Source of the DNA: Escherichia coli
GTDB lineage: Bacteria; Pseudomonadota; Gammaproteobacteria; Enterobacterales; Enterobacteriaceae
DNA length: 34,162 bases
Strand: one strand, 5' to 3'
Assembly: GCF_003334315.1 (NCBI RefSeq)
Contig: NZ_QOWR01000050.1
Positions 1,135 to 13,645 of the stretch are shown in pieces. The notes beneath the pieces are model-generated. The model was not told where the DNA came from. It worked only from the letters and a program-made list of their open reading frames with translations, and did no database searches. Both the position numbers and the translations under genes were made by a program. Position 1 is the stretch's first letter. Each line of letters starts with the position of its first letter.

Positions 1135-1995
1135 TTATTCTCGCGAAATACCATCCAACGTAGACAACACTTCCTCAGAAAGTTGCAATTTTTCAGCAGC
1201 CATATTCTCCCGTAAATGCGCAACCGAAGACGTCCCTGGGATCAGCAAAATATTCGGTGAACGCTGTAACAGCCACGCCAGCGCCACCTGCATTGGTGTT
1301 GCACCCAGGCTCGCAGCAACATCGGAAAGTGTGGACGATTGCAGCGGTGTAAAGCCCCCGAGCGGGAAGAACGGCACGTAGGCAATGCCATCGTGGGCCA
1401 AAGCATCAATCATTGCATCATCAGCACGGTGCGCGATGTTGTATTCGTTTTGCACACAGACAATTTCGGCAATCTTGCGCGCCTCTGCAACCTGCGTCGG
1501 TGTGACGTTGCTCAGGCCAATATGTTTTACCAGGCCTTGTTGTTGCATCTCTGCCAGCACGGTCAGGCTGGCCTCAATCGATCCTTCCGCTGGGCCATGA
1601 CCATCCCCCATCATAACGCGCAGGTTAACCACATCCAGCACGTCCAGCCCGAGATTACGTAGATTATCGTGCACCGCTTTTTGCAGCTCTGCCGGAGAAA
1701 ATGCGGGCAACCAGGATGCGTCCTCTCCACGCCGCGCACCAATTTTAGTGACAATTGTCAGGTCGTCAGAGTAAGGATAAAGCGCTTCGCGGATAATCTG
1801 ATTGGTGACGTGCGGACCATAAAAGTCGCTGGTATCAATATGATTGACGCCCAATGCCAGCGCCTCACGCAGCACGGTTATAGCGACGTGGCGATCTCGT
1901 GGGGGGCCAAAAACTCCAGGACCTGCCAGTTGCATCGCGCCATAACCAAGACGGTTAACGGATTTTGTACCGAGAGTAAATGTGTTGCTGCTCAT
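1135..1995 (-). CDS. ydbC: Aldo/keto reductase family oxidoreductase YdbC (286 aa)
   Basis: 286-aa ORF starting MSSNTFTLGTKSVNRLGYGAMQLAGPG, typical of the aldo-keto reductase family; same length and position relative to paaY as K-12 ydbC. Confidence 0.8.
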   Translation of the reverse strand: MSSNTFTLGTKSVNRLGYGAMQLAGPGVFGPPRDRHVAITVLREALALGVNHIDTSDFYGPHVTNQIIREALYPYSDDLTIVTKIGARRGEDASWLPAFSPAELQKAVHDNLRNLGLDVLDVVNLRVMMGDGHGPAEGSIEASLTVLAEMQQQGLVKHIGLSNVTPTQVAEARKIAEIVCVQNEYNIAHRADDAMIDALAHDGIAYVPFFPLGGFTPLQSSTLSDVAASLGATPMQVALAWLLQRSPNILLIPGTSSVAHLRENMAAEKLQLSEEVLSTLDGISRE

Positions 1996-2125
1996 CGCAC
2001 CCTGCCCTGTAATAAAACGGATTAAGAAAAATCAGTATAGAAACGAAAAGAGATAAATAATGCGAAGGTGTAAACAAGATTACTGGATGAGTTGCTCTGT
2101 TATCCTGAAAGACACCAAAACAAAA

Positions 2126-2149
2126 CGCGTCAAGCGCCGCATCCGGCAA
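2126..2149. repeat. REP-like (repetitive extragenic palindrome) fragment
   Basis: Minus-strand reading GCCGGATGCGGCGCTTGACGCG shares its first 13 nt with the REP consensus GCCGGATGCGGCG... as I recall it; intergenic location between convergent/tandem genes. Confidence 0.35.
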
Positions 2150-2150
2150 T

Positions 2151-2181
2151 AAAAAAACCGCAACCTGTATCAGCGTTGCGG
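2151..2181 (-). terminator. Rho-independent terminator after paaY (end of the paa transcription unit)
   Basis: Stem CCGCAAC (2158-2164) / GTTGCGG (2175-2181); on the minus strand it is followed by U7 (the A7 run at 2151-2157). Lies 46 bp downstream of the paaY stop. Confidence 0.7.
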
Positions 2182-2226
2182 TTTAGGGATCACATGCTAA
2201 AAATTAGAACGTCCAGCATCAGGACG

Positions 2227-2817
2227 TTACTGTTTCGGTCGCAGATTCTCATCAAATACCAGGCGTTTCCTGCCAGGTTCAATTTCCCGCAATGGCTCGA
2301 CTTGATGTAACGTCTGCTTACAGCGTGTCACCAGCACCTGATACTCATGCGTACCCTGCTTTTTCCATGCCAGCTCCTGCTCACTAAGTTCACGAATCGC
2401 TTTCGCCGGGCTGCCGACAATCAGGTAATTAGCAGGCATTTCTGCTTTGGCTTTCACAAATGCGGATGCGCCAACAATGCTGTTCTCGCCAATCACCGCA
2501 CCGTCCATCACTACCGCGTTCATTCCCACTAATGCATTGCGGCGGATAATGCAGCCGTGAAGGATAGCGCTATGACCAATATGTCCATCTTCTTCAACGA
2601 CAGTATCCTGCTCGGGAAAACCGTGCATAACGCAATTATCCTGAATGTTCGCGCCATCTTTCACCACGATACGACCAAAATCGCCACGCAGACTGGCATT
2701 TGGCCCAACGTAAACGCCCTTGCCGAGAATAACATCGCCGATCAATACCGCTGTCGGATGGACAAAACTCTCTTCTGGCACAACCGGAGTCAGACCGTCT
2801 ATCTGATAAATTGGCAT
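2227..2817 (-). CDS. paaY: Phenylacetate degradation protein PaaY (hexapeptide-repeat, gamma-carbonic-anhydrase-like thioesterase), 196 aa
   Basis: 196-aa ORF with left-handed beta-helix hexapeptide repeats (…[29 protein letters not shown]…); overlaps the paaX 3' end by 19 nt; last gene of the paa cluster. Confidence 0.85.
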
Positions 2818-3749
2818 AACGCCTCCTGTTCAATATTCAAGCCGCCAAAACGTTGAAAATACAGGCTTCCCGGCGCAGGCAGTTCACCGACCGAGGTTTC
2901 ACCTTTTTCACTAACGAACGCTAAAGCAGCAGGCGCTACGCGCTGATAAATGTTGATACACAGCTGACGTGCCGTATGCCCTGCCCAGTGTGCCGGAAGC
3001 AACTCCTCCGGCAACAATGGGTCTTTAAGGACGACACGGCGATAAAAATGGATCAGTAAAAGCTGAATATGAAATGCCCGCTCCGGGGTTAACTCGTCTG
3101 CCGCCTCTTTTAACAGCGGCACCAGCGGGCGGAATGACTGAATAAAGGTTTCGTACATGGCATTTTGTTCAGTTAAATGCCAGCACTCTTCTACTCTGGC
3201 ACGCAGTGCTGCGCGAGAAAGCGCCAGTGGTATTTGCGCTTCAAAACAAATCACGTTATCCGCCACCCCCGCTTCATGCAAAAGTGCCTGTACATCGGCC
3301 AGTTTTTGCGACGGCGATGCCATCAGGCTGGGTGCCAGTGCGCCAAAACCTTGCCAGATCAACTGCTTTTTGACATCAGCCAGCGTCGTTTTATCTAAAC
3401 CTTCCGAGAGCAACAGGAGCCATTTACCATCCCATGCAGGTTGCTCTGCGCGATAAATTTTACTTTCTGCCCGTCGCGTCAGGCGCAAGCCTTTATCACT
3501 GAGGCTATAGAAACTGCGTCGCCCGATGCGGGAAACATCCAGCCAGCCTTCTTTATTAAGACGAAACAAAGCGGTGCGCACGAAACGCTCACCAAATCCC
3601 AGCCCTTCCAGCAAAGCAGCCAGACTACCCAACCAGATTTCACCACCACGATGGGAAAGCGAATCACCATACAGAGAGGAGATCAAAGATGTGCCACTGA
3701 CCGGAACAGCGTTTACAGCATGTTGGATAAAAGTATCAAGTTTACTCAT
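2799..3749 (-). CDS. paaX: Phenylacetyl-CoA-responsive transcriptional repressor PaaX, 316 aa
   Basis: 316-aa ORF ([31 protein letters not shown]…) immediately upstream of paaY and downstream of paaK, the position and length of PaaX. Confidence 0.85.
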
Positions 3750-3810
3750 TCGCTTCAGTCTGTTGTTATTGTTGTGATTTATGAATCATAGCACAGGTCG
3801 TATCGACTTC

Positions 3811-3840
3811 TGGCCCTGGCGCTTTACCCCACCAGGGCCA
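3811..3840 (-). other. Stem-loop in the paaK-paaX intergenic region (9-bp stem, 12-nt loop, no U-tract)
   Basis: TGGCCCTGG (3811-3819) / CCAGGGCCA (3832-3840) are a perfect inverted repeat lying 10 nt after the paaK stop on the minus strand. Confidence 0.4.
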
Positions 3841-3849
3841 GACGATACG

Positions 3850-5163
3850 TCAGGCACCAACAATATTGCGCAGATCAAACACCCGACACGCCTTGCCTTC
3901 TGAACGCGGGATACTGCCACAGTTAACGATCATCACATCGGTAGAGATCCCCACCATCGACTTAATCCGATGGCGCAGCTGGTGGCATACCTGGCAACGC
4001 TGCTCATGCGTCAATGTCAGGCTACTTTCTTTCAACTCCACTTTCACAGAAAGTGAATCAAGATGCCCCCGGCGGTTCACCTCCAGTTGGTAATGCGGCG
4101 ATAAATGTTCGAATTTGACAATCTCTTCTTCCAGTTGTGACGGAAAGACATTTACACCGCGAATAATCAACATGTCATCGCTGCGTCCGCTGATGCGATC
4201 CATGCGGCGCATAGTCCGCGCCGTTCCTGGTAACAGTCGGGTTAAATCACGCGTGCGGTAACGAATGACCGGCAATGCTTCTTTGGTCAGCGTGGTGAAT
4301 AACAGTTCGCCATGTTCACCATCGGCAAGCGGTGTGCCGTCATGAGGATTAACAATTTCAGGATAGAAATGATCTTCCCAAATGGTTGGGCCGTCGGTAG
4401 TTTCCAGACACTCCATCGCCACCCCCGGCCCCATCACTTCTGACAGGCCATAAATATCCAGTGCGGTGATCCCCAGGCGACGCTCAATCTCTTTACGCAT
4501 GGCCTGTGTCCACGGCTCAGCACCAAATACTCCAACCCGCAGCGAGCAACCGCTGGCATCACCGCCCAACTGCCGCTCCAGCTCTTCAATCAGGTTAAGG
4601 CAATAAGATGGCGTAACCATGATCATATCTGGTTGAAAATCACGGATCAGTTGCGCTTGTTTTTCCGTCTGCCCGCCAGACATCGGGATCACCGTAGCGC
4701 CCAGACGTTCGGCACCATAGTGCGCACCCAGCCCACCAGTAAACAGGCCGTAACCATAGGCAACATGAATTTTGTCTTTGGGCGAGCCCCCTGCCGCACG
4801 CAAAGAACGCGCTACAATATTGGCCCAGTTATCAATATCGTTTTGCGTATAGCCGACAACTGTCGGTTTACCTGTGGTTCCCGAAGAAGCATGAATGCGC
4901 ACCACTTGTTCCATTGGCACGGCAAAGGTGTCAAAGGGATAGTTGTCGCGCAGATCCTGTTTGGTGGTACAGGGAAATTTACGCAGGTCTGAAAGTTCCC
5001 TGAAATCATCAGGATGTACGCCTGCTGCGTCGAATTTGCGCCGATACATCGGCACATTTTCATACGCGTGTTTGAGCGTCCATTTCAGACGCTGTGTTTG
5101 CAACGCCTGTAACTCATCAACAGACGCGGTTTCAATCGGGTCAAGCTTTGTATTGGTTATCAT
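3850..5163 (-). CDS. paaK: Phenylacetate-CoA ligase PaaK, 437 aa
   Basis: Adenylate-forming enzyme motif SSGTTGKPT is present. The track ORF (3850..5247) is over-extended; I trimmed it to the internal start MITNTKLDPIETASVDELQ, giving 437 aa. Confidence 0.85.
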   Translation of the reverse strand: MITNTKLDPIETASVDELQALQTQRLKWTLKHAYENVPMYRRKFDAAGVHPDDFRELSDLRKFPCTTKQDLRDNYPFDTFAVPMEQVVRIHASSGTTGKPTVVGYTQNDIDNWANIVARSLRAAGGSPKDKIHVAYGYGLFTGGLGAHYGAERLGATVIPMSGGQTEKQAQLIRDFQPDMIMVTPSYCLNLIEELERQLGGDASGCSLRVGVFGAEPWTQAMRKEIERRLGITALDIYGLSEVMGPGVAMECLETTDGPTIWEDHFYPEIVNPHDGTPLADGEHGELLFTTLTKEALPVIRYRTRDLTRLLPGTARTMRRMDRISGRSDDMLIIRGVNVFPSQLEEEIVKFEHLSPHYQLEVNRRGHLDSLSVKVELKESSLTLTHEQRCQVCHQLRHRIKSMVGISTDVMIVNCGSIPRSEGKACRVFDLRNIVGA

Positions 5164-5189
5164 TGTAGGGTACTCGCAGGTTGATATGC

Positions 5190-6395
5190 TCAAACACGCT
5201 CCAGAATCATGGCGATGCCCTGACCGACACCGATGCACATGGTGCACAATGCGTAACGACCGTTACGCCGATGCAGCTCATGGCTGGCAGCCAGTGCCAG
5301 GCGGGCACCACTCATTCCCAACGGATGGCCTAAGGCGATAGCGCCTCCGTTGGGGTTAACATGTGGGGCATCATCAGGCAGCCCCAATTCGCGTAGTACA
5401 CCCAACGCCTGGGCCGCGAACGCTTCGTTCAGTTCAATCACGTCCATATCGTGAATACTCAGCCCTGCGCGTTCCAGCACCCGGCGAGTTGCAGGCACCG
5501 GACCAAGTCCCATCAGGCGCGGTTCCACCCCGGCGGTTGCCATGGCTACGATACGCGCCCGCGGTGTCAGTCCTTGCGCTGCTGCCATCTGTTCACTGGC
5601 AATAATCAACGCAGCGGCTCCGTCATTCACCCCGGAAGCATTGCCTGCGGTAATCACCCCATTGGCACGAAATGGTGCTTTTAACCCACGTAACTGTTCC
5701 AGCGTCGTTTCCGGGCGCAGATGCTCATCATGTTGTATTTCTGTTACAACACCTTTCTTGTTTTTCAACACAACCGGAACAATCTCCTCAGCCAGAATGC
5801 CTGAGGATTGCGCTTTTGCCGTACGTTGCTGACTGCGTAGCGCAAAACTATCTTGATCTTCTCGTGAGATTTTTAACAGTTCAGCTACATTCTCTGCCGT
5901 TTCCGGCATGCTGTCAGTTCCAAATTGCTGAGCCATGAGCGGGTTCACAAATCGCCAGCCAATAGTGGTATCGAACATCTCAGCCTGACGAGAAAATGCA
6001 CTGGCTGCCTTGCCCATAACAAACGGTGCCCGTGACATTGACTCCACGCCACCGGCGATCAGCAAATCGCCATCGCCCGCTTTAATCGCCCGTGCGGCAA
6101 ACCCCAGTGCGTCCAGCCCGGAACCACACAAGCGGTTAATGGTTGTGCCGGAAACACTCTGCGGCAGCCCCGCCAGTAAAGTCGCCATCCGGGCTACGTT
6201 ACGGTTATCTTCTCCCGCCTGATTAGCACAGCCGAGGATCACATCATCGATACACTCCGCATCGAGACGCGGGTTTCGCACCAGCAGTTCCCGCAAAGGG
6301 ATAGCAGCCAGATCATCAGCCCGAACACTTGATAATGCCCCGCCGTAGCGACCAATTGGCGTACGAATTCCGTCACAAATAAAGGCTTCACGCAT
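5190..6395 (-). CDS. paaJ: 3-oxoadipyl-CoA / 3-oxo-5,6-dehydrosuberyl-CoA thiolase PaaJ, 401 aa
   Basis: Thiolase fold with active-site Cys region [10 protein letters not shown] and C-terminal CIGVGQG; start codon overlaps the paaI stop (ATGA). Confidence 0.9.
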
Positions 6396-13361: not shown

Positions 13362-13402
13362 GTCATCACCTTTACGATTCCAGTTTTCGTGAATTAATTA
13401 AA

Positions 13403-13417
13403 AACACGAATCACATT
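13403..13417 (-). promoter_or_regulatory. PaaX operator box in the paaA promoter region
   Basis: Reverse complement AATGTGATTCGTGTT matches the 15-bp PaaX consensus WWTRTGATTCGYGWT (recalled from the literature) at every position; lies 42 bp upstream of the paaA start. Confidence 0.6.
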
Positions 13418-13587: not shown

Positions 13588-13602
13588 TTTATGATTCGTG
13601 AT
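13588..13602 (+). promoter_or_regulatory. PaaX operator box in the paaZ promoter region
   Basis: TTTATGATTCGTGAT matches WWTRTGATTCGYGWT at every position; lies 44 bp upstream of the paaZ start, in inverted orientation to the paaA-side box. Confidence 0.6.
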
Positions 13603-13645
13603 TTAACTATTAGCAACAGAAATGTGAAACATCTGGAGAGTAGCG

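Follow-up and report, generated by a model that had tools for sequence, protein, structure and literature searches.

Results

The paaK–paaX junction

A spacer of 100 nt (3849..3750) separates paaK from paaX, the two genes being encoded on the – strand of the window, the 34,162-nt stretch of Escherichia coli DNA that was analysed. The paaK reading frame (3850..5247, – strand) closes with a TGA stop codon at 3850..3852, and that of paaX (2799..3749, – strand) opens with an ATG at 3747..3749, which corresponds to the RefSeq start of paaX at 1463539 in the coordinates of MG1655; paaK ends there at 1463438. Over 301 nt, the spacer region matches E. coli K-12 strains at 100% identity, and the RefSeq annotation under this match reads paaK followed by paaX. 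The junction is the known boundary of the phenylacetate-degradation operon and the repressor gene paaX in E. coli K-12. By the reading frames, paaY overlaps the end of paaX on the same strand, and a sequence scan found that paaY itself closes with a hairpin followed by a T-run, the canonical form of a terminator (2208..2228, – strand). Judged by its sequence, this element appears to be the real end of the paaXY unit, unlike the stable hairpin without a U-tract that follows paaK. The anatomy, the conservation and the statistics given below come from the present analysis, and the literature supplied the start site, the transcripts that read through, the antisense 3' ends and the steric-hindrance mechanism of autorepression. 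The window positions of the paaXY start and of the antisense 3' ends were converted by way of the MG1655 coordinates of paaK and paaX.

The Px promoter

For the operon b1399|b1400, Supplementary Data 2 of the SMRT-Cappable-seq study gives 1463509 on the forward strand as the start, marked as the 'same' as in RegulonDB (PMC6131387). On conversion, this places the start site of paaXY (the promoter Px) at 3779 on the – strand, 30 nt 5' of the paaX ATG. The start lies 6 nt downstream of TATGAT (3790..3785), which together with the TG at 3793..3792 makes up an extended –10 element, TGcTATGAT (3785..3793, – strand), the arrangement of an extended –10 sigma-70 promoter. The hexamer at the –35 position, CCAGAA (3813..3808), has no match to the consensus and is located within the 3' arm of the hairpin. 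Scanning 3500-4200 for simple –35/–10 promoters returned nothing, Px having been missed for the lack of a –35 element.

For comparison, we collected 80 loci with PaaX relatives from the Enterobacteriaceae and analysed 78 regions (77 loci and the window), each comprising the 70-90 nt upstream of paaX. The sequence TG-C/T-TATGAT is present in 62 of these 78 regions. In a review, Px is described as driving paaXY, with PaaX repressing it via steric hindrance of RNA polymerase (PMC9493321, citing Fernández et al. 2014), and both the binding of PaaX at Px and its release by phenylacetyl-CoA are reported (PMC9493321). The suggestion of the first-pass annotation that PaaX regulates its own gene at a paaX-proximal promoter is therefore correct in substance and, according to that review, was already published. 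The present locus is that of the Px system of Fernández, Díaz and García (2014), with the same gene order and 100% identity to K-12, and nothing in it appears to be fundamentally different. The extended –10, the 26-nt operator spacer, the ATG-proximal right half-site and the G/T dimorphism described below were derived here from sequence and comparison.

A predicted bipartite PaaX operator at Px

The consensus for E. coli PaaX sites is given in the review as TGATTC(N27)GAATCA (PMC9493321, citing Fernández 2014 and Kim 2004). Pattern, conservation and consensus together point to a bipartite operator at 3751..3788 (– strand), in which TGATTC (3788..3783) is followed, after an A/C-rich spacer of 26 nt, by GAAGCG (3756..3751). 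The left half-site agrees with the consensus at 6/6 positions. The right half-site in K-12 is weak, with 4/6, and was counted as a half-site at this N26 spacing. A search of the window for the strict pattern TGATTC-N24-31-GAATCA gave no exact hit, and thus the right half-sites in E. coli are all imperfect. Pattern searches located two comparators, the operator at Pa (TGATTC-N27-GAATCG, 13376..13413, – strand) and the operator at Pz (TGATTC-N28-GAAACA, 13592..13630, + strand). With the relaxed pattern TGATTC-N26-28-GAANC, which was composed after the sites at Px, Pa and Pz had been seen, these three were the only matches in 34 kb, against 0.26 expected, and three were reached in 0/100 shuffles.

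The likeness of Px to the operators of Pa, Pz and pac, described by Kim et al. 2004 and Ferrández et al. 2000 under TGATTC(N27)GAATCA, extends beyond the shared left half-site (6/6). Like them, Px has a GAA-C right half at a similar distance and overlaps the promoter. Unlike them, it has a spacer of 26 nt, instead of 27-28, and its K-12 right half, GAAGCG, is the weakest of the three found in the window. Across the 78 regions, TGATTC followed by a spacer of 26-27 nt and GAAnCn was found in 58, and in 56 of those 58 the right half was a perfect GAATCA exactly 1 nt ahead of the paaX ATG. Most other Enterobacteriaceae, unlike K-12, have this perfect right half at Px. The bipartite TGATTC-N26-GAAGC layout and its conservation across genera are above chance. 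Relative to the published start at 3779, the operator extends from –9 to +29 and overlaps the core promoter, its left half-site lying over the extended –10 TGcTATGAT; a site placed over both the –10 and the start fits a mechanism in which RNA polymerase is excluded. The 32 bp between the centres of the half-sites amount to about three helical turns, which would place them on the same face of the DNA. The exact operator boundaries given here are predicted ones.

Loci of Cedecea and Buttiauxella (L052, L053, L055-L058, L060, L063, L064, L069, L071 and L079) keep the –10, as TGCTATGTT, and lack the TGATTC-N26-GAATCA operator. Motifs resembling AATCA/TGATT occur further upstream in them, and in several paaK is non-adjacent. 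The operator layout in these two genera appears, by sequence, to differ.

The first-pass annotation had drawn attention to a local palindrome, TGATT-tatg-AATCA, at 3774-3787. The palindrome is present, one base away from that position, at 3775..3788, where the coding strand reads TGATTC-AT-AAATCA. The window has 39 inverted repeats of its class (5+5 nt with a 4-nt spacer), where shuffles give about 32, and TGATTC alone is found 20 times against 20.7 expected; taken singly, the palindrome class and the hexamer are each at the chance level. The proximal arm AAATCA is confined, among the 78 regions, to E. coli and two Pseudocitrobacter loci, with a degenerate form in one Citrobacter locus (L066); other genera read TGATTCATCCAGGA at this position. 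As a proposal for a PaaX site, the palindrome had the left half-site, TGATTC, right and the partner wrong. AATCA is not the partner of TGATTC: most genera lack the proximal arm, and the distal GAATCA-like hexamer is the one conserved.

Variation of the operator within E. coli

In an alignment of eight E. coli sequences, six differ from K-12 in the promoter-operator core, and all six have a T at 3753 (– strand). The right half-site is therefore dimorphic, GAAGCG in K-12 (4/6) and GAATCG in other E. coli (5/6), with K-12 carrying the weaker allele of a common dimorphism. For a 56-nt query spanning the core, identity to K-12 was 95% or higher in 3145 of 3147 E. coli genomes. These divide into 1657 genomes at 99% identity or above (100% among the matches listed) and 1488 in the band of 95-99% (98.2%, that is one mismatch, among the matches listed).

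A stable hairpin without a U-tract after paaK

RNAfold, applied to 3856..3790, predicts a GC-rich stem-loop of 51 nt and 20 bp (13 + 7) at 3799..3849 on the – strand. Its inner stem of 13 bp pairs 3842..3830 with 3821..3809 around a loop of 8 nt (3829..3822), and, beyond a 3-nt bulge, an outer stem of 7 bp (CGUAUCG/CGAUACG) pairs 3849..3843 with 3805..3799; the perfect core of the stem is 10 bp (3810-3819 / 3832-3841, – strand). The predicted energy is –38.1 kcal/mol (z = –6.0), a stability reached by 0/200 shuffles, and the + strand copy folds as well, at –33.1 kcal/mol (z –7.2). The hairpin starts at the first base 3' of the paaK TGA, and the tail after its stem reads ACCUGUGC. It has the GC-rich stem-loop of an intrinsic terminator and lacks the U-tract: none follows it on either strand, and a scan of 3500-4200 found no terminator-like site. 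The hairpin of 9 bp at 3811-3840 in the first-pass annotation is thus real and devoid of a U-tract, as stated there, its size having been understated; the remark that it begins ten nt past the paaK stop does not hold, given the outer stem that RNAfold extends to the first base after TGA.

A 56-nt hairpin query was found in 3166 E. coli genomes, and in 3166/3166 it occurs at a single place, always at paaK. Since it is confined to one place per genome and always to paaK, it is not a dispersed repeat. The E. coli variants that were sampled all keep the fold, at –30 to –38 kcal/mol, their changes being mostly G-U wobbles or loop substitutions; no fully compensatory double change was seen among them. 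In the alignment of eight sequences, the 5' arm is variable and the 3' arm invariant. The 3' arm overlaps the region upstream of the Px promoter, and its invariance could reflect constraint on the promoter instead of selection on pairing.

In other genera we folded 61 orthologous spacers, from the paaK stop to the –10. The median z of the fold was –3.6, and 51 of the 61 were below –2. The structures start at a median of 4 nt past the stop and end at a median of 7 nt ahead of the TG. Folding is retained in them although the sequences are not homologous, and they include simple hairpins besides elements resembling REP or BoxC. U-rich tails, defined as 5 or more T among the 8 nt that follow the structure, are present in 6/61 (e.g. 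L011, L014 and L051). Spacers of Enterobacter, Lelliottia and Pseudocitrobacter contain one or two copies of an element of the form CCCTCTCCC...GGGAGAGGG...GGGTGAGGG, which we take to be BoxC-like; those of Kluyvera, Citrobacter and others contain GCCGGATAAGGCG sequences, presumably REP-like. Loci with such spacer elements are L004, L010, L013, L015, L016, L029, L065, L067, L078 and others. For the window itself, the MG1655 annotation has no repeat feature at the hairpin, and an Rfam scan of 3600-4000 gave sub-threshold chance matches to eukaryotic families only.

Transcripts that cross or end at the hairpin

The SMRT-Cappable-seq study reports two 'novel' operons, b1398|b1399 and b1398|b1399|b1400, that share a start at 1461405 (PMC6131387). 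This start lies inside paaJ, and the corresponding full-length reads, paaK+paaX and paaK+paaX+paaY, cross the hairpin. With published full-length reads passing through it, this structure is not a tight terminator. The start at 1461405 corresponds to 5883 on the – strand of the window, and upstream of it are CTGACA (5917..5912) and, after 17 nt, GAGAAT (5894..5889), a plausible internal promoter in paaJ.

'Partial termination' after paaK, as the first-pass annotation had it, is plausible for a hairpin without a U-tract that published full-length reads cross from paaK into paaX and paaY. The companion proposal of attenuation has no support: the fold of the whole spacer is one dominant hairpin without a competing helix, and neither mutually exclusive structures nor a leader peptide, the marks of an attenuator, were found in it. 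Rho-terminated RNAs are known to carry stable stem-loops without a U-tract immediately 5' of their steady-state 3' ends, which these structures shield from PNPase and RNase II (PMC6061677). The paaK hairpin is like these protective stem-loops in being stable and free of a U-rich stretch, and in having a precise 3' end at its foot, on the antisense strand. Rho dependence and protection from exonucleases are features of the known class that the paaK hairpin may share. Its likeness to a canonical intrinsic terminator is limited to the GC-rich stem and the position just past the stop; unlike such a terminator, it lacks a U-tract and is crossed by transcripts. The Term-seq data of Adams 2021 list no sense-strand 3' end at the hairpin, as expected of an operon that is repressed in the media used, nor any Rho-dependent region in the coordinate ranges around the hairpin that were searched. 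A literature search for a paaK terminator found nothing relevant.

On the opposite strand, the Term-seq data (Adams et al. 2021, Supplementary file 1) list 3' ends at 1463441 and 1463435, minus strand, in the class 'antisense paaK'. Each row of this table prints a 61-nt context whose position 51 is the 3' end, as we verified on the row of the uspF terminator. On conversion, the ends fall at the foot of the hairpin on the + strand of the window, at 3847 (1463441, average count about 27,700) and at 3853 (1463435, about 26,300), the steady-state 3' end that the protective class would have at this place being found here on the antisense strand. The counts are comparable to that of the uspF mRNA end, and they come from two separate blocks of the table, which, judged by where they stand in the file, probably represent the LB OD 0.4 and M63 sheets. 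No antisense start was found in the start-site tables searched, SMRT-Cappable-seq Data 1 included; the latter has no start or end coordinate in 14634xx-14635xx around the spacer. A scan of 1900-3860 for antisense promoters gave chance-level matches only. Within the spacer of the PaaX operator there is a weak extended –10 on the + strand, TGtTATTGT (3764-3772), that is directed towards Px. An antisense RNA would begin near 3779 if this element were active. The key positions of the element are not constant among genera.

Discussion

We read the spacer as a compact operon junction in which two modules adjoin, a hairpin without a U-tract and the Px promoter with its bipartite PaaX operator, and we put the probability of this reading at about 80%. 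The 20-bp hairpin would most likely define the 3' end of the paaABCDEFGHIJK mRNA and block exonucleases from it. As a terminator it would be leaky at most, so that some transcription would continue into paaXY. In its opposite-strand form, the same hairpin would mark the 3' end of antisense RNA. At Px, bound PaaX would cover the –10, the start site and the entire leader, excluding RNA polymerase, until phenylacetyl-CoA released PaaX from the operator. The observations of the first-pass annotation are in part confirmed by these results and its interpretation in part supported: the hairpin, the left half-site and autoregulation stand, the partner of the half-site does not, and attenuation is unsupported.

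Other explanations have to be weighed for each of the two modules. At the promoter, the short palindrome TGATT-N4-AATCA could itself be the PaaX site, a short inverted repeat occupied by one winged-helix dimer. Its geometry would be right for a single dimer. The proximal hexamer AAATCA matches GAATCA at 5/6, lies inside the invariant E. coli core and could strengthen binding where the distal half-site is a weak one. Yet most genera have TGATTCATCCAGGA in place of this arm while the distal GAATCA is perfect in 56/78 regions, Pa and Pz have the N27/N28 layout without such a palindrome, and repeats of this class occur at chance frequency, all of which makes the short palindrome an unlikely operator. 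For the hairpin, a very stable GC-rich stem-loop immediately 3' of a stop codon invites the view that it is an efficient Rho-independent terminator, insulating paaXY from the catabolic operon, and the U-rich tails of some orthologous spacers (L011, L014 and L051) would fit this. Such a role is improbable when there is no T-run on either strand, only 6/61 orthologues have a U-rich tail, and published full-length reads span paaK plus paaX(Y). Nor do the presumed REP-like or BoxC-like sequences that occupy the same spacer position in other genera persuade us that the E. coli hairpin is a dispersed repetitive element (of the REP/BIME or BoxC type) that landed by chance between two operons: with a single place in each of 3166 genomes, no repeat annotation in MG1655 and no real Rfam match, this origin is hardly credible.

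The hairpin might instead serve mainly as the 3' end, whether terminator or stabiliser, of a regulatory antisense RNA transcribed across Px. The dominant antisense 3' ends at 3847 and 3853 favour this, as does the weak extended –10 opposite Px (3764-3772). The start-site sources searched yielded no antisense start, however, the + strand –10 match is weak and variable at key positions among genera, and stable hairpins are known to trap the 3' ends of pervasive antisense RNAs without implying function (PMC6061677). Moreover, equivalent hairpins follow paaK in most genera whatever their sequence, which fits a role on the sense strand. We therefore regard a chiefly antisense function as doubtful and rather unlikely, the most economical reading being that pervasive antisense transcripts have their 3' ends trapped at the hairpin. 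A particular form of the antisense proposal seems to us quite improbable, namely an abundant RNA of about 70-75 nt that would be initiated by a promoter face to face with Px inside the PaaX operator, the candidate being TGtTATTGT (3764-3772), would end at 3847/3853 and would compete with Px for RNA polymerase. If it existed, this RNA might have a part in the bimodality of paaX: in standard growth, paaX is reported among seven E. coli genes whose expression in single cells is bimodal, a behaviour that the authors of that study explain by autorepression (PMC11825099).

With the compact junction as the preferred reading, the finding matters little beyond annotation. The regulatory content of the spacer, namely Px, autorepression by PaaX and the start site, is already published, and the hairpin belongs to a known and common class. 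What is added is a map of Px at single-base resolution, with an extended –10, no –35 and, as predicted, an operator that begins at the –10 and stops one base short of the ATG; the antisense 3' end at the hairpin, which is published and stands without comment in the sources searched; and the retention of some hairpin between paaK and Px, rarely with a U-tract, by most Enterobacteriaceae. The dimorphism at 3753, which splits E. coli genomes about 53/47, might alter the strength of repression by PaaX.
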